From the IMG/VR virus record IMGVR_UViG_3300045988_107225: a stretch of 64,000 nucleotides of DNA. One strand, 5' to 3'. The notes beneath the pieces are model-generated. The model saw only the letters and a program-made list of their open reading frames with translations. It did no database searches and was not told the origin of the DNA. Shown in pieces: positions 27,474 to 61,500 of the stretch. The stretch is from a virus. How positions within the stretch are numbered: the first letter of the stretch is position 1; each line of letters starts with the position of its first letter. The translations under genes and the position numbers were made by a program.

Positions 27474-27752
27474 ATGGGTAGATCGACAGAGTACTACAGG
27501 ACTCATCCCGAAGCCAGGAAGAAAAAGGCTAAAAAGGACAAGGAGATAAATGCCAGACCGGAACAGAAAGCCAAACGCCGAGAGCTTGGTCGTAAAAACT
27601 ACGAAACGGACAAGAAGAAGGGTAAGGGCTGGAGAAAAGGAAAGGATTGTTCTCATACCAAGAACGGTCTTAGGTATAAATCAGTAAAAGCTAATAGGGG
27701 ATCCAAATCGGATACGAAAGGTGACAAAAATGCAAGAGGATCTGAAAAATAA
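27474..27752 (+). CDS. highly basic Lys/Arg-rich protein (92 aa)
   Basis: ORF track; about 35% K+R. Confidence 0.4.
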   Translation: MGRSTEYYRTHPEARKKKAKKDKEINARPEQKAKRRELGRKNYETDKKKGKGWRKGKDCSHTKNGLRYKSVKANRGSKSDTKGDKNARGSEK

Positions 27753-28854
27753 AATAGATATAAGAAGGATATTCAAAACCTCTAAACAGGTTATGGAAGA
27801 GGCGTATGAGAATATCTTGAAATACAGGCGGGGAGAGCTTATCCCCGCTAAAACCGGATACGATTATATTGATGAGGCTTTGCTTGGAGGTATTTTCCCT
27901 CAGCATGCTATTGCCATAGGAGCCCGGCCATCTGTAGGTAAATCGTATGTGGCCCAAAAGATATTGGAAAATGTGATGAATCCGATGATCAACCCGCAAG
28001 CAGAAGATTATTTTCTTGTTAATTGCGAGTTCGAAATGAATCCTCAAGATCTTCTTCTTCGTAGAATGAGCCAGGATATGAAAAAGCGGGCTCCTGAAAT
28101 ATTAAGAAGGCAAGATTCTAATACAGTAGAAGAGATGAGGATGTTTGAAATCCTTCAAGGTGAAATCAGGAATAATATAATATACATCGATGCTCCGTGT
28201 ACGGTAAAAGAGTTTGAGGCGGCTGTGTATCATATAGCTACCAAACATAAAGACAAACGTCTTATAATATTTAAAGTCGATCATATTGCTTTGATAAAAA
28301 GAATGGGGTTAGATCCTAAGTCGGCTATAGATGATTTGGTGGCGGTTATGAACGAAGCTAAATTAGTATATAAAAACATATTTTTCCTCATCATATCCCA
28401 ATTCAACAGAGAGATAGAAGGAAGGATAAAAAGCCCACAAGAGCAGCCTCCGCGTCTTTCTGATTTTTACCAGTCTGATACGCTGGGTCAGTTATGTACG
28501 TTAATGATAGGTTTGCACAATCCTCGTAGGTACGGGCTGGATAAGTATATGATATTTGGGAAAGATTGGTATCAGACTCTTGATAGGTTTAAAACTGAAA
28601 ACAAAACATCATTCAGGACAGCCGGACTGGTGTTTCATCATATACTGAAGGTAAGGCAAGTTAGTATGGAAGAGCTTACTAATACAATCCACCCAGAGAT
28701 CTTGCCGGGGCATGGATGGATGTACGGGGAGGGAGGGACGAAGTTCGTGAACCCCAACCAGCCGCCGACGCCGCCCAAGCTCTATACTGTGGAAGATGTT
28801 ACGGACAATCAGGAACAAGAACAAGAGACAAAAGAAGAACAGTCATTGTATTAA
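27730..28854 (+). CDS. DnaB-like replicative helicase (RecA-fold C-terminal domain)
   Basis: Walker A AIGARPSVGKSY (DnaB GARPSMGKT); Walker B/H2 LIIFKVDHIALI; H3 SQFNRE (DnaB SQLNR); track start 27721 is GTG, ATG at 27730. Confidence 0.65.
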   Translation: MQEDLKNKIDIRRIFKTSKQVMEEAYENILKYRRGELIPAKTGYDYIDEALLGGIFPQHAIAIGARPSVGKSYVAQKILENVMNPMINPQAEDYFLVNCEFEMNPQDLLLRRMSQDMKKRAPEILRRQDSNTVEEMRMFEILQGEIRNNIIYIDAPCTVKEFEAAVYHIATKHKDKRLIIFKVDHIALIKRMGLDPKSAIDDLVAVMNEAKLVYKNIFFLIISQFNREIEGRIKSPQEQPPRLSDFYQSDTLGQLCTLMIGLHNPRRYGLDKYMIFGKDWYQTLDRFKTENKTSFRTAGLVFHHILKVRQVSMEELTNTIHPEILPGHGWMYGEGGTKFVNPNQPPTPPKLYTVEDVTDNQEQEQETKEEQSLY

Positions 28855-29489: not shown

Positions 29490-29687
29490 ATGGAAAAGAA
29501 GGAATTTAAAGTAGGAGAAGTATTTACTGCCGGACTTGTAAGATTAAAATGTGTGGAAGGTGATACATGCGATGGATGTATATTCGAAGATTACGATTCT
29601 TGTTCATGTACAGACATAATTATTGGTCCATGTGGACATGTTGATAGACAAGATAACAAGAATGTTATTTTTATTAAAGCTGATTAA
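29490..29687 (+). CDS. cysteine-rich small protein (65 aa)
   Basis: ORF track; AGGAGGG upstream. Confidence 0.45.
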   Translation: MEKKEFKVGEVFTAGLVRLKCVEGDTCDGCIFEDYDSCSCTDIIIGPCGHVDRQDNKNVIFIKAD

Positions 29688-29689
29688 GA

Positions 29690-30403
29690 ATGTACATCAA
29701 TTTCAGACAACTTGCAGCATCAGACATGACTCCTAATGATCTTGCCAATCTTCTTGCCATAAGACAGAAGGATACGGTTATGATCGAAGCCATGCCGGAA
29801 GAAGATGCTGGGAGGTATATAGAGCTTGGCCTGGTTGAGAAATTAAAATCAGGCGTGATGAGATTGACCAACAAAGGAACGTCTTTTGTGAATTATATAG
29901 AGACACCGGAAATGACAGACGAGGTTCTGGAAACGTTGAAGATTATGATAGGAATGTACGAATCGTATTCGAAAGACATAGGTGTCAGCAGAAAAGAAGC
30001 AGAATCCAGGTTGTGTTGGTTTATGGGTAACACCTCATTCAAGAAAGAGGTCATACTTCAGGTAACGGAATCTTATATAGCAGAGTCAGGAGATTATACA
30101 ATGAGCTTATGTAACTTCATATGGAAACCGCCTTCTCAGGCTTTTTCAGTTCATATGAACCTTAAAAATTCAAAGCTCTTTGACTTAATAGCTGAAAAAT
30201 TTAAGATCGCTACCGAGCCTTATTTGGAGTCTAAGAAGAATAAGGAAATGGATTGGTTGTTTGCCGTATCTAAATTGCCTACGCCGCCAGCTAAAGGCAA
30301 TCCGGATTATTTGTTTACCGGAAGTTCTGAAACAGACAAAGAGCGATTGAAAAACATAAAAACATACTTATTTAACAAAATTAGAAAGCAATGGAAAAAG
30401 TAA
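29690..30403 (+). CDS. hypothetical protein (237 aa)
   Basis: ORF track; first gene of the ACP/NfeD/flotillin block. Confidence 0.55.
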   Translation: MYINFRQLAASDMTPNDLANLLAIRQKDTVMIEAMPEEDAGRYIELGLVEKLKSGVMRLTNKGTSFVNYIETPEMTDEVLETLKIMIGMYESYSKDIGVSRKEAESRLCWFMGNTSFKKEVILQVTESYIAESGDYTMSLCNFIWKPPSQAFSVHMNLKNSKLFDLIAEKFKIATEPYLESKKNKEMDWLFAVSKLPTPPAKGNPDYLFTGSSETDKERLKNIKTYLFNKIRKQWKK

Positions 30404-30642
30404 GAATCAGAAAGATAATAGAGGATATAATTATTACTCAGTTTCTTAATTCAGAAATGGATATAGTTCACGAAGAAGATGTGACGTTTAAAGAACTTGG
30501 ATTAGATTCTCTTGATCAAATTGTACTTGAAATGATGGTGGAACAAAAATTCAATATTGTTATTATTGATTATGATATGGAGACCATCAAAGATATGACT
30601 GATCTTGTTTACAAAATAATAACAGAAGGATATGGGAAGTGA
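30391..30642 (+). CDS. acpP: acyl carrier protein-like (phosphopantetheine-attachment DSL motif)
   Basis: RIRKIIEDII ... FKELGLDSLDQIVLEMMVEQKFNIVI aligns with E. coli AcpP RVKKIIGEQL ... [26 protein letters not shown], including the Ser of DSL. Confidence 0.75.
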   Translation: MEKVRIRKIIEDIIITQFLNSEMDIVHEEDVTFKELGLDSLDQIVLEMMVEQKFNIVIIDYDMETIKDMTDLVYKIITEGYGK

Positions 30643-31126
30643 TATAATTTTATGCATGGCTTTAATAGCGTCATTTGCTTTTGTTATACAGTTTTTGTTG
30701 TCGATATTAGGATCTGATCTGGATACGGATATTGACATTGACAGTGCTTCTGATTTAAGCATGTCTTTGTCGGACATCATATCATTCAAGGGCATAACAC
30801 ATTTCATTCTTGGATATAGCTGGACTACTTACTTTTCGGGTTCCCATTTAGTAGGGGTTGTGATAGGGTCGTTTTTCTTTATCGTTTTGTTTTACGTATA
30901 TAAGTTACTTCTTAAGTTAAAGCAAGAAATGGTGTACGAATGTCCGGAAGATTTAAACGGAAGAGAAGTGGAGATAGTATTTAGATCAGGGAAGAATCAT
31001 TATATGGTAAATATTTCGAAAAATGGAAGACAAGAGCAAATGAGAGTAAGATGCTTGTCTGGAAAAACTTACAAAAACGGTGACAAGGTGAATATAAAAT
31101 ACGAAGAAGGAGAATTAAGTATCTAA
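30632..31126 (+). CDS. NfeD-like (YuaF-type) membrane protein
   Basis: Two or three N-terminal TM helices plus a C-terminal beta-rich segment GREVEIVFRSGKNHYMVN ... GDKVNIKYEEGELSI; sits immediately upstream of a flotillin gene, as in bacterial nfeD-floT operons. Confidence 0.55.
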   Translation: MGSDIILCMALIASFAFVIQFLLSILGSDLDTDIDIDSASDLSMSLSDIISFKGITHFILGYSWTTYFSGSHLVGVVIGSFFFIVLFYVYKLLLKLKQEMVYECPEDLNGREVEIVFRSGKNHYMVNISKNGRQEQMRVRCLSGKTYKNGDKVNIKYEEGELSI

Positions 31127-31157
31127 TTTTTTTATCAACAATTAAATTTTAAAAGTT

Positions 31158-32858
31158 ATGACAACAATCATGTACGTGTCAGCTATCTTAGCTGTAGTGA
31201 TTATTTTAACAATCATCGGAGTCTTATCAAGGTATCGTAGATGTAAGCCTAATCAGGTCTTGGTTGTTTACGGTAGGACAGGTGGGGAAAAGAAGTCGGC
31301 GAAATTATATCATGGTGGAGCGGCATTTGTCTTGCCTATTATTCAAAGCTATGATGTTTTGTCAATGGAGCCTATGCAAATAGATTGCAAGCTTACCGGT
31401 GCTTTGTCATCTCAGAATATTAGAGTAGATGTACCCACAACCATTACAGTAGCTATCAGTACAAATCCCGAAATCATGCAAAATGCGGCAGAAAGACTTT
31501 TGGGGATGGATACCGAATCTACTGAAAATCTTATTACGGACATCGTTTACGGTCAGATGCGTTTGATTATTGCCGAAATGACGATCGAAAAACTTAATTC
31601 TGACAGGGATGAGTTTTTAGATAAGGCAAGAAAGAACATTGATAACGAGCTTAATAAGTTAGGTCTTTACCTCCTGAACATCAACATCAGTGACATTAGA
31701 GACGAAGCCGGTTATATTATGAACCTTGGTAAGGAAGCTGAAAGTAGGGCTCTGAACGAAGCACAGGCTAATATCGAAGAACAGGAGAAGCTGGGTGCTA
31801 TTAAGATTGCTGTACAGCAGAAGGAGAAAGAAACGGCTGTAGCTAATACCAAAAAAGAACAAGAGATTCAAATTGCTTGTACTGAAAAAGAAAAGGAAAC
31901 GATAGTAGCTGAAACGAAGAAAGAAAAAGAAATAGCTTTAGCTTTAACCGATAAAGAAAAACAGATTGGTGTAGCTCAAGCAGATAGAGACAGGGCTGCG
32001 GTTATCGCAAAAACTTTAACCGACAAGGAATCGGCGATCGTAAGATCTAAGGCAGAACTTGAAGTAAATAAAGCCGAGGCTGAAAGGATGGAAGAAGTCG
32101 GAAAGAATAAGGCTGAAGCTGACAAGGAAGCAGCTATAGCAATACAAGACTCTGAAGCTCAGATTAAGAAGGCTGAGGCTGAGAAAAATGCGTCTATAGG
32201 ATACAACAATGCCCAGAAGGAGGTTGCTGTGTCAGTATCAGAACTACAGATTATCAAAGCTCAATCAGAGAAGAAGGCCGGAGAAGAAAAAGTTAAATCG
32301 GAAGCGGCTGTAAAAACAGCAAAAGAGCTTGCCGACAAAGAAGTGGAAGAAGCTAAGGCTAAGAAAGTTCAGGCTGCGCTTAAGGCTGAAAAGATTGTGC
32401 CGGCTGAAACCCAGAAGGAAGAGGCTATCTTGCAAGCTGATGCCGAGGCCGAGAAGATCAAACGCCGGGCTGAGGCTGAGGCAGCAGCACATTTGGCAAA
32501 AGCTGAGGCAGAGGCAAAAGCTATTCAGATGAAGCTGGAGGCAGAAGCCGAAGGTAAGAAAAAGTCGTTAATGGCAGAAGCCGACGGATTTAAGGCTATG
32601 GTGGAAGCAGCAGAATCCAATCCTCAGATCGCCATCCAGTACAAGATGGTTAATCAGTGGAAAGAAATTGCTGGAGAACAGGTTAAAGCATTTGAGCACA
32701 TTAATCTCGGAAATATCACGGTATTTGACGGCGGTCAGAACAGTACCGGTAATTTCCTTAACAATGTTGTCAAGACCGTCGCTCCGGCATTGGGAGTCAT
32801 TGATCAGCTTCCGATTGCAGATACTTTAAAGAAATTAAAAGGAGATGACAAAAAATAA
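31158..32858 (+). CDS. floT: flotillin-like SPFH/band-7 protein (FloT/YuaG-like, 566 aa)
   Basis: N-terminal TM helix; SPFH-domain signature (PNQVLVVYGRTGG, VLPIIQSYDVLSMEPMQID); long Ala/Glu/Lys-rich EA-repeat coiled coil; C-terminal flotillin-type tail. Confidence 0.8.
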   Translation: MTTIMYVSAILAVVIILTIIGVLSRYRRCKPNQVLVVYGRTGGEKKSAKLYHGGAAFVLPIIQSYDVLSMEPMQIDCKLTGALSSQNIRVDVPTTITVAISTNPEIMQNAAERLLGMDTESTENLITDIVYGQMRLIIAEMTIEKLNSDRDEFLDKARKNIDNELNKLGLYLLNINISDIRDEAGYIMNLGKEAESRALNEAQANIEEQEKLGAIKIAVQQKEKETAVANTKKEQEIQIACTEKEKETIVAETKKEKEIALALTDKEKQIGVAQADRDRAAVIAKTLTDKESAIVRSKAELEVNKAEAERMEEVGKNKAEADKEAAIAIQDSEAQIKKAEAEKNASIGYNNAQKEVAVSVSELQIIKAQSEKKAGEEKVKSEAAVKTAKELADKEVEEAKAKKVQAALKAEKIVPAETQKEEAILQADAEAEKIKRRAEAEAAAHLAKAEAEAKAIQMKLEAEAEGKKKSLMAEADGFKAMVEAAESNPQIAIQYKMVNQWKEIAGEQVKAFEHINLGNITVFDGGQNSTGNFLNNVVKTVAPALGVIDQLPIADTLKKLKGDDKK

Positions 32859-32865
32859 ATACAAT

Positions 32866-32887
32866 GGCCCAAGGTTACACTTGGGCC
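32866..32887 (+). terminator. GC-rich hairpin 8 nt after the flotillin stop
   Basis: Perfect 8-bp stem GGCCCAAG / CTTGGGCC with a 6-nt loop; no strong U-tract. Confidence 0.35.
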
Positions 32888-32919
32888 TAATTGAAGAAAT
32901 AAAAGCAGCATTCATAGAT

Positions 32920-32935
32920 TTCCTGCCGGCAGGAA
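32920..32935. promoter_or_regulatory. perfect 16-bp palindrome TTCCTGCCGGCAGGAA (candidate operator / protein-binding site)
   Basis: Read directly; lies in the 207-bp gap between flotillin and the next gene. Confidence 0.35.
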
Positions 32936-33065
32936 CAGTGCTTTACTAATTACGATATTTTTAACATGGATTTTGGACAAGATTTAGAACCAGAAGAACT
33001 GACCAAGCATTATGATCAGTGTTATGGAATTGATTTTGAAACAGAAGAAGAGGAGGATGAAGAGT

Positions 33066-33371
33066 ATGACCGATGAGGAATTTGCATTAGATAATAAGAA
33101 AAAGGTTGTTGTAAGAAAAAGAATATCTTATTTAAACAAAGGGGATAAAGTGTGGATCGTGTCTTCCGACGGGTATCTGCTACACACGGACGTAGTTAGA
33201 GCCGAACGCGGACGGTCTTATGTGGATATAGATGGGATTCTGTATTGGAAGCGAGGATTAGATGGCAAGCATCGTAATCGTAATAACTACATGCAGTTTG
33301 CCATGACACCAGAAGACGGTAAGAAGTATGTCGTATATTACCCGGAAGGATTTAAAGACAATGACTTATGA
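33066..33371 (+). CDS. hypothetical protein (101 aa)
   Basis: ATG at 33066 preceded by GAGGAGGA; track start 33012 lies inside the upstream structured region. Confidence 0.5.
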   Translation: MTDEEFALDNKKKVVVRKRISYLNKGDKVWIVSSDGYLLHTDVVRAERGRSYVDIDGILYWKRGLDGKHRNRNNYMQFAMTPEDGKKYVVYYPEGFKDNDL

Positions 33372-34387
33372 TGGTCCCGGAAACGCATTTGCTATATAAG
33401 GAGTTTAATGGTGTAAAACGTCTTGCCATATCTTATTCCCAGATAGATACGTTTCTTACCTGTCCAATGAAATGGTATAAGACTTACGTAGAGGGCAAAA
33501 GGTCTACGGAAAAACAAGAAGCTACGTCTTATGGTACGGTTATCCATAAGACACTGGAATACTTTTTTAAGAACGGAAGACAGCCTTCTGGTAAAGACCT
33601 TGGAGAAGCAATAAGTTATTATTCCTATCAAGAAGACATACCTTGGCAATCACCGGAAAATATGATGATAGCCATGAAACAATCCGGGGAGCTTCTTGCT
33701 TGGATTGTGGATCTGTTTAAAAAAGATGGGAATAGGTTTATGATAGCTGATAGTGATCTTAATCCATGTGAGAAACTTATCAGACACGGCGCTATAGTTG
33801 GAGTCGAAGAAGATTTTGTGTTGCCGTACCGTCTTCCTAAGCCTGTTGATATAAATGGTGACGTTCATACACATGTGTACATAGTAGGATCGGTAGACCT
33901 TCATCTGGCTATAAAGAGCAAGAACGTAGTTCACCATTATGTCATAGATTGGAAATCAGGTAATAAGGTTTTTGATTCTAAGAAGTTGGAAACGAATTTA
34001 CAGCATCCTATATATTCGTTTTACATCTATAGAAAATATGGTGGAGTTCTGCCAGATATGAACATCTATTTCTTTACCAGGACCAGACAATACCAAAAGG
34101 TTAAAGTGGATGAGGAACGTAAAACAAAATCTATAGAAATGCTAAATGACACTTTATCCAAAATGTATGATTTTGAAGATAATAGTGTAAAAACATTTCA
34201 AGCGTACATCCAGGGAGCAGAAGGAGCCAGGTATAGCAAGCGGAGCGCCACCCTAAGTCAGCCTGTTCCGCAAAACAGGCTGCCCTGCCCGTCAGCACTG
34301 TGTTATTATTGTGACTTTGGATTACATAACAAAAACGAATGCCCTTTCTCTTCGGATTGGGATCCGTCTAAAAAGATAAAACGATGA
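33368..34387 (+). CDS. RecB/Cas4-like PD-(D/E)xK nuclease with Fe-S cysteines
   Basis: YSQIDTFLTCPMKWY (motif I with N-terminal Cys); GTVIHKTLE; GSVDL ... IDWKSG (D ... DxK); C-terminal CPSALCYYC ... ECPF. Confidence 0.6.
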   Translation: MMVPETHLLYKEFNGVKRLAISYSQIDTFLTCPMKWYKTYVEGKRSTEKQEATSYGTVIHKTLEYFFKNGRQPSGKDLGEAISYYSYQEDIPWQSPENMMIAMKQSGELLAWIVDLFKKDGNRFMIADSDLNPCEKLIRHGAIVGVEEDFVLPYRLPKPVDINGDVHTHVYIVGSVDLHLAIKSKNVVHHYVIDWKSGNKVFDSKKLETNLQHPIYSFYIYRKYGGVLPDMNIYFFTRTRQYQKVKVDEERKTKSIEMLNDTLSKMYDFEDNSVKTFQAYIQGAEGARYSKRSATLSQPVPQNRLPCPSALCYYCDFGLHNKNECPFSSDWDPSKKIKR

Positions 34388-58594: not shown

Positions 58595-61500
58595 TCAACA
58601 CTCCTTATTTAACTCATTTATCGAATCCGAATTATCAGAACCTTCTACAAGATTCTTATTCCTATCTATCTCTTCCTGGCTCATATTACTCATCATATTT
58701 TGTATTTTTCTACCAGATTGAGATAAAGAACGGATGAATGCACTGGAACTTATCTTAACTCCAAGATCCGGTTTTACCCTAAACGCTTCACCGGTACTGA
58801 TATTATACAAATCATACACACCTGAGTTCATATAGAATTTATATATCCAGTTTCCACCAGCTTTTTTGTACCCTAATTTGGTTAACTCGACTACACTCAT
58901 ACCAAATTTAATGCCATTACGACCCATTATCTTCTCCGGTATAGGTTCTACCTTAGCCGGAACAGATGTATATGCTTCATCACCGCCGTACAGGAAATAA
59001 GGGGTTGTTACCCTTGATATGTGAGTAAGCGGTTCTTCGGATATACGAGGTTCGTCTTTCTCGGCCTTAGATTCTTTCCTTGGATTGGATATTCTAATAA
59101 AAGGATCGTATGTTAAAAAGGTTAAGCCGTATTCTACTTTATAACCTGATACGCCGTTAAGATCCCTTATAGCCTTAGTCGTATGCGAGTGGTTGATGGT
59201 GTCTATCCCGTACCTTGATTCCATATCGGTCATAATGCTATTAACTTCATCCCCCTCTACATAAACCTCTTCTCCTTCCGGGATAGAGGTTATGCCGGCA
59301 GCCCTTCTAAGTAACCATAAAGTAACTTCGGCAATATCAGAGAACTTATCTCCGTTCTTCTTATAGTTATCTACTCTTCCTTCTTCAGATCCAGGTAAAT
59401 AGACATCTCCCTCAGCTTTGCCATCATCTCTGGGTTGTCCTTCTCTTTTTCCATCTCCCTTTTTATCGCCATCTTCCTCAGCGCGTACTGCACCGCCTTC
59501 TGCACTTCCTTCTTTTCCATCATTTAAAATATTATCTGATTCTGACTCTATAGACTCCACAACAGCATCATACTCTGGAATGCCGCTAAGGAAATCTGCT
59601 ACGTTATTCAAAAACTCTATTTTTTCCTCGTTTGTCATATCAAGGCTTTCCATAGGTCTCCATATGGCAGGCAGGTTATTTGATTCTATTGCAGTAGAAA
59701 CATCTTCTACAGTTTGATTATCTACCGTAGGCAAAACTTCAGAAACCAAACTATTGATGTCAGATTCCATTTTTTCTACTTCCTCTTTTGTGCCATATTC
59801 TTTTAGGGCATCCATGCCATTGACTCTAAGAGAATAATTCAAAGCCTTGCTTGGAACAAAATTAATATATTTCAAAAAGTTTTTCAACTCTGATATAATT
59901 TGTTCGTCAGATCTTGGACCAACATAATCAACCACCACCTGATCTGTTTGAGAACGAAGCCAAGAAACATATTCTTCTAAGGTCTTACCTCCCTTTTTAG
60001 AAGGAGTGGATATTTTATCACCTACTGTTCCTTTAGGTTCTAATCCCATTTCTTCCTTAAGGCTTTTAGGATTACCTCTCTCACGAAGAAACCTCAAATC
60101 ACCTCCTACAATCTTCCTTGCTATAAAATCAAAAATATTAGCATAAGACGGCAATCCTTCTTTTTCTATATGAGATTCTATTTCGTTTAACATAAGAGAG
60201 AAGTTTTTTCTGGAGGTGCGCTTCTTGCCATGTAAGGACTGCGTAGCTTGTGTCGTAGGAGTCGGATGAGCTAATGGCGCCGGCTGAGTCCCCCGGACAG
60301 GGTCTTCCTCTGGCATTTCCTCTTCGTAAATATCCACATCTTCCTTGGAAGTAACGGTCTTACCCTCATCGGAGAAAGGGAGATCATCTTCTATAAGTGA
60401 TTTAGGTCTGGAAGATGATTTACCAAACTGAATCCTGATCTTAGGAGCAACAAACATCTCACCTTCGAAATCTATTCCAGATTCTACTTCAGACGTCACA
60501 ATGTCTTTCACACTCCTACTTTCATCTTCTACCCACTTAACAACATCAGGAACTGTAGATAATTTTTCTATAGCCTCACGAGCTTTTCTAAGCCCTGAAA
60601 TAGGATTCAAATACGATACTTGATACGAAGCCGGATCAAGGCCTAACTTGGTTAGATACGCATTAAGATCTTGTATATCATCTTGACCCATCTGTAACAA
60701 TTCAGAGTCACCTGATTCAAGCAGCATATCTATAAAAGAAATCCATTTCTTTCCTTCCTCTGATTCCACAGAACGTAGACTAACCGGGAAAAGATAATTA
60801 AGACCGTTTTTGCCTTTGATGACAACTACCGGAACTCTTACATTTTTGTAATTATTCCCCTTGTCATTTAATATAGAATAAGCAAATGGGAAGCCTGTGT
60901 ATTTAGATCCGTTCTTAAGCACGACTTTGCCATTTAATACATATCCGACATCAGATACTTTTTCAGCTCCTTTTTCGGTAATAGGGAGATTTTCTACCTG
61001 ACCATATCCTTGACCGTTTACTCTCATGTTAAACACCGGTCTTCCAGGAAGGGTCTGGGCAACAACATGCGTGCCGACGTTGATGGTGGCCGACCGGCCG
61101 GCGTCCTTCTTCCACTTGTTAAAAGCCGTTCTTCTTATCTTACTTATACCATCTATGCCTCCTGTGTCAGCTTTTACAACAGAAACGAATCTGTTTCCAC
61201 TCATGACCTTGATAACCATATTGGATACCAGCTTATTTTCAGCAGATTCTATTCTTTTTTTATCACCGGACTGAACAGCATCATTGTATTCGGCAAAAAG
61301 AGACTGATTATAGGTATCATTTGCATCTATCTCAAGATTAACCTTATCTCCTTTCTTCAAAGAAGATAATGCTTCCTGATCTATTTTATCTACTTCATTC
61401 TCTCCGAATCCAACACCTGTTCTGTACGGAACCAATTCGTCTGAATCAAGACGCTTATAAACCAAAGAATATGAATTACCCACGTCCTGAATAGACACAT

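Follow-up and report, generated by a model that had tools for sequence, protein, structure and literature searches.

The 64,000-nt stretch of viral DNA analysed here (the window; IMG/VR record IMGVR_UViG_3300045988_107225) carries, at positions 29690–32858, a four-gene block in which an NfeD-like membrane-protein gene and a flotillin gene directly follow an acyl carrier protein (ACP)-like gene. A preliminary description of the sequence read these genes as an ACP joined to a flotillin operon. Its gene layout holds, in that the open reading frame (ORF) listing contains all four co-directional genes, on the + strand and exactly where they had been placed. They encode a 237-aa backbone protein (29690–30403), an 83-aa ACP-like protein (30391–30642), a 164-aa NfeD-like membrane protein (30632–31126) and a 566-aa FloT-type flotillin (31158–32858). 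The 237-aa and 83-aa genes overlap by 13 nt and the 83-aa and 164-aa genes by 11 nt, and a 31-nt spacer separates the 164-aa gene from the flotillin gene. The block is part of a long + strand gene array with uniform base composition and no break. As also described earlier, the NfeD-like/flotillin pair thereby lies inside a phage replication-gene array, with a DnaB-like helicase upstream and a PDDEXK exonuclease and an SNF2-type helicase downstream.

The block is 97.8% identical at the nucleotide level to crAssE-Sib (OR575929.1; 151 kb, human gut), and the source phage is an epsilon crAss-like phage of the crAssE-Sib species group (Epsilonunovirus). More than 130 loci, on independent viral contigs as long as 155 kb, show this same arrangement. 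The lineage is abundant in metagenomes: IMG/VR holds 166 stretches encoding the flotillin, the best 80 of which are at least 96% identical, and one 90%-identity flotillin cluster comprises 2,433 metagenome sequences; among 50,697 GenBank phage records, closely similar flotillin, ACP and 164-aa genes were found in crAssE-Sib only. That record has the same genes under the same annotations, naming an ‘acyl carrier protein’, a ‘transmembrane protein’ and a ‘flotillin family protein’, with a DnaB-like helicase on one side and an exodeoxyribonuclease on the other. The accompanying paper (Babkin et al. 2024, PMC11054128) does not analyse them: the acyl carrier protein and the flotillin family protein are named in its supplementary ORF table, and the main text is silent on both. 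The earlier belief that an ACP and a flotillin had not been described in such a phage is therefore mistaken, even though we found no published link between crAss-like phages and flotillin and a literature search for crAss and ACP returned irrelevant matches only. Babkin et al. 2024 (PMC11054128) also argues for repressor/antirepressor genes in epsilon crAss-like phages and for prophage-like relatives in Parabacteroides, which runs counter to the earlier impression of a virulent-looking phage.

The flotillin call, made earlier from a transmembrane (TM) segment, an SPFH domain and an EA-rich coil, is confirmed by profile searches. The protein matches Pfam Band_7 (PF01145) at 91.8 bits over residues 30–211 (cut-off 23.6) and Pfam Flot (PF15975) at 38 bits over residues 450–559 (cut-off 27). 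Residues 4–24 form an unbroken hydrophobic run followed by RYRR, which reads as an N-terminal membrane anchor, and AEAEA-type repeats occur in the EA-rich coil of the translation, N-terminal to the Flot domain. Against the NCBIfam FloT equivalog model NF058507 it scores 144.5 bits, compared with a cut-off of 700. Judged by these matches, the phage protein is a flotillin-family member of FloT type and not an equivalog of Bacillus FloT. Metagenomes contain many in-frame length variants of the coil, giving proteins of 408–595 aa (P0097, P0099, P0104, P0102–P0119); in-frame deletions are a source of this variation, and some assemblies join the NfeD-like N-terminus to the flotillin C-terminus via internal deletions (P0140, P0147, P0151).

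For the 164-aa protein, the earlier NfeD/YuaF-like call stands by predicted fold and family profile but not by a Pfam NfeD match of the phage protein itself. Searched singly, it had no match in Pfam (NfeD PF01957, E up to 1), NCBIfam, PHROGs or PADLOC, and a profile of five sequences matched nothing in the Protein Data Bank (PDB). A HMMER search with a small profile of the protein gave 427 cluster representatives, typically of 160–180 aa, and the family profile was taken from an 83-member alignment (A4). Five of the 83 members match Pfam NfeD, with a best E of 6e-5, and the best sequence match of the 83-member profile in the PDB is YuaF, over the C-terminal domain (E 0.023). YuaF is the NfeD2 partner of FloT in Bacillus subtilis. 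With the same alignment, AlphaFold2 gave a model with a pLDDT of 89 that has three TM helices (residues 2–25, 52–69 and 72–96, all hydrophobic) and a six-strand C-terminal barrel (OB fold), for which the best fold matches are NfeD C-terminal domains. Because the family-profile matches, the predicted fold and the position upstream of an SPFH gene agree, the name NfeD-like is warranted at the level of remote homology and fold, below that of a hidden Markov model (HMM) match.

Across the 83-member alignment a DxDxDxD loop and an S-x-K-G-x-x-H-F motif are nearly invariant, and the phage protein has all of these residues. The acidic loop (D-T-D-x-D-x-D) lies between the first and second TM helices and S-F-K-G-x-x-H-F at the start of the second (residues 30–58), the loop being the sole low-confidence part of the model. 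A cation-binding role for the loop is conceivable from its composition.

The bacterial relatives of the pair were surveyed with one genome per species, and 80 Bacteroidales flotillin loci were examined. Flotillin was found in Bacteroides, Phocaeicola, Parabacteroides, Prevotella and relatives, and at 79 of the 80 loci an NfeD-like gene lies 35–172 bp upstream on the same strand, the lone exception being a locus without upstream flank. Within 5 kb of these 80 loci, neither the phage ACP nor the 237-aa protein has a homolog. Since the Bacteroidales genes are adjacent at 79 of 80 loci with no ACP nearby, it is that pair which the phage captured. The nearest non-phage flotillins (P0120 and P0110) sit in bacterial chromosomal contexts, beside EamA, pseudouridine synthase and DUF3256/DUF5715 genes for P0120 and lysS-, pgi-, gpsA- and aroC-type genes for P0110; chromosomal housekeeping context is seen in L082 and L084. 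These two flotillins have BLAST identities of 62% and 49% to the phage flotillin (68% and 65% over alignable columns), and each is preceded by a 165-aa gene that is 37–39% identical to the phage 164-aa protein. Identity between the two phage flotillin lineages is 83%, and a long branch sets them apart from all bacterial copies. By region, identity of the flotillin to the host protein is 79% in the SPFH domain, 81% in the C-terminal domain and 55% in the coil. The simplest reading of these comparisons is a single capture of a Bacteroidales two-gene operon by an ancestor of the two phage lineages, followed by divergence.

The studied paradigm for such a gene pair is the yuaF-floT (nfeD2-yuaG) operon of B. 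subtilis. Both this operon and the chromosomal Bacteroidales pairs (for example those of B. thetaiotaomicron, Parabacteroides and Prevotella) share with the phage pair the gene order, the orientation and the short spacer, as well as a flotillin built of TM segment, SPFH domain, EA coil and Flot domain and a partner with N-terminal TM helices and a C-terminal OB fold. Unlike the Bacteroidales operon, the phage pair lies in a phage replication-gene array and is dispensable and polymorphic. The Bacteroidales flotillins are 85–99% identical to one another across genera, whereas the phage flotillin is 66–70% and its partner 30–41% identical to the Bacteroidales copies, and the partner falls below the Pfam NfeD threshold. 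Other phage-encoded SPFH membrane proteins are the ‘flotillin family protein’ of Vibrio phage KIT04 and those of Pseudomonas KPP10/PAK_P3-like phages and Schitoviridae phage GIB1. They are lipoproteins or carry Band_7 as their only domain, in contrast to the full FloT-type protein found here with an operon partner and an identifiable donor clade; neither an NfeD-like nor an ACP neighbour was detected beside the flotillin gene of KIT04.

The ACP call for the 83-aa protein stands at the level of the domain and not of the housekeeping protein. It matches Pfam PP-binding (PF00550) at 25.1 bits (cut-off 20.8) and PHROG 5934 ‘acyl carrier protein’ at 2.8e-9, but remains below all NCBIfam AcpP cut-offs (best 33.5 bits against 71), and thus shows no equivalog-level likeness to AcpP. 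Ser40 of its DSL motif aligns with Ser36 of Escherichia coli AcpP, at the start of helix II. This serine is invariant in the 54 ACP protein variants of the window lineage, in which variation is concentrated largely in helix II just after the serine and in the following loop. Nonsense alleles (TAA or TGA) occur in seven loci from about five contigs, with the flotillin intact there. The annotation of crAssE-Sib, in the parts examined (the record without 100,001–106,993), names no phosphopantetheinyl transferase (PPTase) or acyl enzyme, and phmmer searches with AcpS of E. coli and Sfp of B. subtilis, a weak test, gave no match below E = 1. Host AcpS could serve the phage ACP. Other phage ACPs (PHROG 5934; for example g153 of Yersinia jumbo phage fHe-Yen9-04) are likewise small acidic PP-binding proteins annotated as auxiliary or host-takeover factors. 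Unlike them, the 83-aa family directly follows a replication-module gene encoding a winged helix-turn-helix (wHTH) protein, has a ratio of nonsynonymous to synonymous substitution (dN/dS) of 0.44, includes one lineage without the phosphopantetheine serine and has no cognate acyl enzymes found with it in the same parts of crAssE-Sib. For the ACP-like protein, a role as a small, independent factor that interacts with the host is more likely than one as acyl donor to the membrane module, since no PPTase or acyl enzyme was found, a sister lineage has lost the serine and dN/dS is high.

The 237-aa protein had been proposed as an acyltransferase or PPTase, and this assignment has to be abandoned. 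Although it has no HMM match in Pfam, PHROGs, NCBIfam or PADLOC, fold comparison gives its N-terminal domain a MarR-like wHTH fold, followed by a helical C-terminal domain, and it matched no fold or HMM of acyltransferase or PPTase type. A fold search against BFVD returned one significant viral match, an uncharacterised protein of Cellulophaga phage phi14:2. The protein is probably a DNA-binding replication or transcription factor.

Contexts of the 237-aa-protein homologs were used to sample lineage diversity, as IMG/VR scans with the flotillin and with a 237-aa profile gave only the dominant, near-identical lineage. They reveal a conserved frame of DnaB, small ORFs, the 237-aa gene, cargo and the PDDEXK exonuclease. 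In the window lineage (237-aa protein 100% identical) the cargo is the ACP, NfeD-like and flotillin genes, and the same cargo occurs in the P0174 lineage (77%). In the P0180 lineage (60%) it consists of an ACP-like gene, a DNA methylase and two radical-SAM genes, with no flotillin. Neither ACP nor flotillin is present in the P0178 lineage (63%), where the cargo is solely a homolog of the 119-aa ORF, or in the P0193 lineage (57%), which has two unrelated ORFs, and the P0209 lineage (36%) holds a 65-aa non-ACP ORF. The ACP-like proteins of the three lineages that have them are homologous (pairwise E 3e-8 to 2e-12). In the P0180 lineage, however, the motif is GFDDLD, and Asp replaces the phosphopantetheine Ser at six of six loci recovered. 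Conservation of the DSL serine among phage homologs thus holds within the window lineage and fails in its sister, and the four-gene synteny likewise extends to one further lineage while the others hold different cargo. The P0180-type content is seen at L085:5675–8946 and in L086, both of a sister epsilon crAss-like lineage, where the Asp-form ACP-like gene is followed by the DNA methylase and two radical-SAM genes; it may represent another pathway associated with an ACP, or cargo with no such link.

For population genetics within the window lineage, 76 assessable IMG/VR loci were selected via the 237-aa gene, so the sample is unbiased regarding flotillin. The flotillin DNA is intact in 57 loci, wholly absent in 17 (~22%) and affected by other partial deletions in 2. 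Nearly all of the 17 flotillin-less loci share one junction, in which 31129/31131 is joined to 32957/32960 (blastn breakpoints); the breakpoint comparison also showed different deletions in three other loci. From these breakpoints in relatives and the junction sequence, the presence/absence segment is placed at 31130–32959. The junction lies within short T-runs, just past the NfeD-like stop codon and ~100 nt past the flotillin stop codon. On trees from either flank the absent state is scattered, with at least 8–13 changes, which is the pattern that recombination of an allele would produce, and it is derived, since both genes are also present in the P0174 lineage. The ACP is retained in the 17 flotillin-less loci, and the NfeD-like ORF is intact in 16 of 16 flotillin-less genomes examined, with a dN/dS of 0.10. 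Pairwise dN/dS is 0.038 for flotillin, indicating strong purifying selection, 0.068 for the NfeD-like protein and 0.44 for the ACP, with 0.055 for DnaB, 0.039 for the 237-aa protein and 0.050 for PDDEXK. The flotillin is functional when present, yet dispensable.

The data show the identities of the genes, the host origin of the NfeD-like/flotillin pair, the genetic separability of the ACP, the membrane pair and the 237-aa gene, and the pattern of selection. Taken together, we find it likely that a variable cargo slot within a replication-gene array holds three units that can be separated here, and not one operon-machine. The 237-aa gene is a conserved backbone gene for a winged-helix DNA-binding protein, and the 83-aa gene encodes a small, acidic, fast-evolving ACP-like protein that follows the 237-aa gene in some lineages only. 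The host-derived NfeD-like/flotillin pair is, with similar confidence, an accessory membrane module, and the idea of an ACP-flotillin operon is not supported: it is contradicted by the 80 bacterial loci, the sister lineage, the 17 flotillin-less relatives and the seven loci with nonsense ACP alleles.

We infer membrane assembly, mixing with host flotillin and a benefit to the phage as follows. The flotillin would insert into the host inner membrane via its N-terminal anchor and oligomerise through the EA-rich coil and the C-terminal Flot domain into SPFH scaffolds, on which the three-TM NfeD-like partner would dock via its OB-fold domain. Given that the SPFH and C-terminal domains are ~80% identical to those of the host, the phage proteins probably join or supplement host flotillin assemblies, and the NfeD-like protein, which is kept when the phage flotillin is lost, is probably able to work with host flotillin. 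During the host-takeover phase, membrane microdomains might then be stabilised or retuned by the phage proteins, making the module an accessory fitness factor and not an essential gene. Several points weigh against this account. The membrane-scaffold role is drawn entirely from knowledge of the protein family, and the long branch of the phage flotillin (~68% identical to all hosts) may mean that a new function has been acquired. Tight packing, with an 11-nt ACP/NfeD-like overlap, makes it almost certain that the ACP is transcribed together with the membrane pair here, and the two may be functionally linked in the window lineage. Finally, mixed strains or assembly effects could account for part of the 22% flotillin loss, even though a single junction is common to most flotillin-less loci.

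Other explanations were weighed against the same evidence. If the ACP, NfeD and flotillin genes were one functional operon, the ACP would carry an acyl group for use on the scaffold or together with it, with the 237-aa protein as the acyltransferase or PPTase partner. The abutting or overlapping co-directional genes, an ACP above its Pfam cut-off with Ser40 kept in 54 of 54 variants and the identical gene order in P0174 would all fit. Such an operon is nevertheless very unlikely, given that no ACP lies within 5 kb of any of the 80 bacterial pairs, that the sister lineage has an Asp-form ACP-like gene without flotillin, that 17 of 76 genomes keep the ACP without flotillin and nonsense ACP alleles stand alongside intact flotillin, and that dN/dS differs about tenfold between the ACP and the membrane pair. 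In addition, the 237-aa protein carries a MarR-like wHTH domain and occurs without the ACP, and the parts of crAssE-Sib examined yielded neither PPTase nor acyl enzyme. Some, though clearly minor, credence goes to a reading in which the NfeD-like protein is the key effector, docking on host flotillin to reprogramme microdomains, because it is kept under purifying selection even when the phage flotillin is deleted. On the same reading the ACP-like protein would be an apo-ACP mimic that binds or blocks host ACP partners and no acyl carrier, because of its variable helix II residues, the Ser-to-Asp sister form and the lack of acyl enzymes nearby.

The SPFH proteins HflK/C are regulators of FtsH and of lambda CII. 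By analogy, the phage SPFH pair might cage or modulate host FtsH and so determine how stable a regulator of the phage or the host is, for example a switch for lysis-lysogeny or persistence. The same idea has been raised in the literature for Pseudomonas phage SPFH genes, and it would suit the repressor/antirepressor genes and prophage-like relatives of epsilon crAss-like phages as well as a conditional presence/absence polymorphism. We consider it unlikely, since the protein is a FloT-type flotillin and not of HflK/C type, and no FtsH-related or CII-like gene appears linked to flotillin here. Presence/absence polymorphism and coil-length variation of an accessory gene are also typical of conflict genes, and together with the location among early-type replication genes they could suggest superinfection exclusion or counter-defence, in which the scaffold would alter the inner membrane and block DNA injection by rival phages or membrane-associated defence effectors. 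However, a dN/dS of 0.038 is very low and unlike that of arms-race genes, PADLOC defence models gave no meaningful match for any of the four proteins, and the literature searched held no precedent, so that this role is decidedly improbable. Host contamination or a chimeric assembly, as the clearly Bacteroidales-type genes might suggest, has a negligible chance of explaining the block: an assembly chimera is excluded because the arrangement recurs in more than 130 viral-contig loci with the same junctions and in a deposited complete genome, with no composition break, and the phage copies group in a clade of their own with only ~68% identity to those of any bacterium.

Epsilon crAss-like phages occur very commonly in the human gut. 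To our knowledge, the function of the bacterial flotillin/NfeD pair is still debated, and the pair is essentially unstudied in Bacteroidales. The captured pair provides a natural genetic experiment, with a flotillin that is strongly constrained yet a presence/absence allele and an NfeD-like partner that is retained throughout. While the gene names were already public, the NfeD-like nature of the partner, the host origin, the polymorphism and the separability of the units come from the present analysis. This work corrects the unsupported idea of an ACP-linked flotillin operon and draws attention to a family of phage ACP-like proteins in which one lineage can dispense with the carrier serine.

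Past the flotillin gene, 8 nt after its stop codon, lies a GC-rich hairpin (32866–32887, no strand assigned; GGCCCAAGG-TTACA-CTTGGGCC) with a perfect 9-bp stem and a 4–5 nt loop, inside the segment that is absent from flotillin-less genomes. It has no T-tract on the + strand and is a possible candidate for a transcript end or stabiliser. Downstream hairpins at the bacterial flotillin loci examined differ from it. A scan for sigma-70 promoters and terminators, which is ill-suited to Bacteroidales promoters, gave counts not above those in shuffled sequence.

The backbone around the slot begins on the left with the DnaB-like replicative helicase (27721–28854, + strand), known from the crAssE-Sib GenBank annotation and from Pfam DnaB_C in relatives. 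Directly upstream of the 237-aa gene, a 65-aa Cys-rich ORF (29490–29687, + strand) is 64–100% identical across relatives and, with a pairwise dN/dS of 0.85, is by far the least constrained gene of the neighbourhood. On the right are a 119-aa backbone ORF (33012–33371, + strand), whose homolog in the P0178 lineage lies directly after the 237-aa gene (homology judged by eye from the alignment), and the PDDEXK exonuclease (33368–34387, + strand), the right flank of the variable slot. Further along, GC skew and AT skew flip sign near 42 kb of the window, where the + strand replication-gene array gives way to − strand genes.

Relatives also carry inserted sequences. Just downstream of the flotillin block, the relative L104 has a non-coding insert (L104:9339–9583), at a site that corresponds to window positions 33023–33025. 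The insert matches the Rfam HEARO RNA (RF02033) at 102.7 bits against a gathering score of 83, and no ORF accompanies it. The same insert, ~360 bp long, also occurs in about 15 other related loci (for example L107, L110, L117, L133 and L164) and is absent from the window. This match makes it look like an IscB omega-RNA-like element that is orphaned and varies in presence across the phage population. TnpB/IS605-family insertions (OrfB_IS605, Cas12f-like) are dispersed in replication modules (L086:592–1812, L087:590–1810 and L253:6044–7159), and the crAssE-Sib record has the family annotated twice, at 58986–60125 and 64190–65413.

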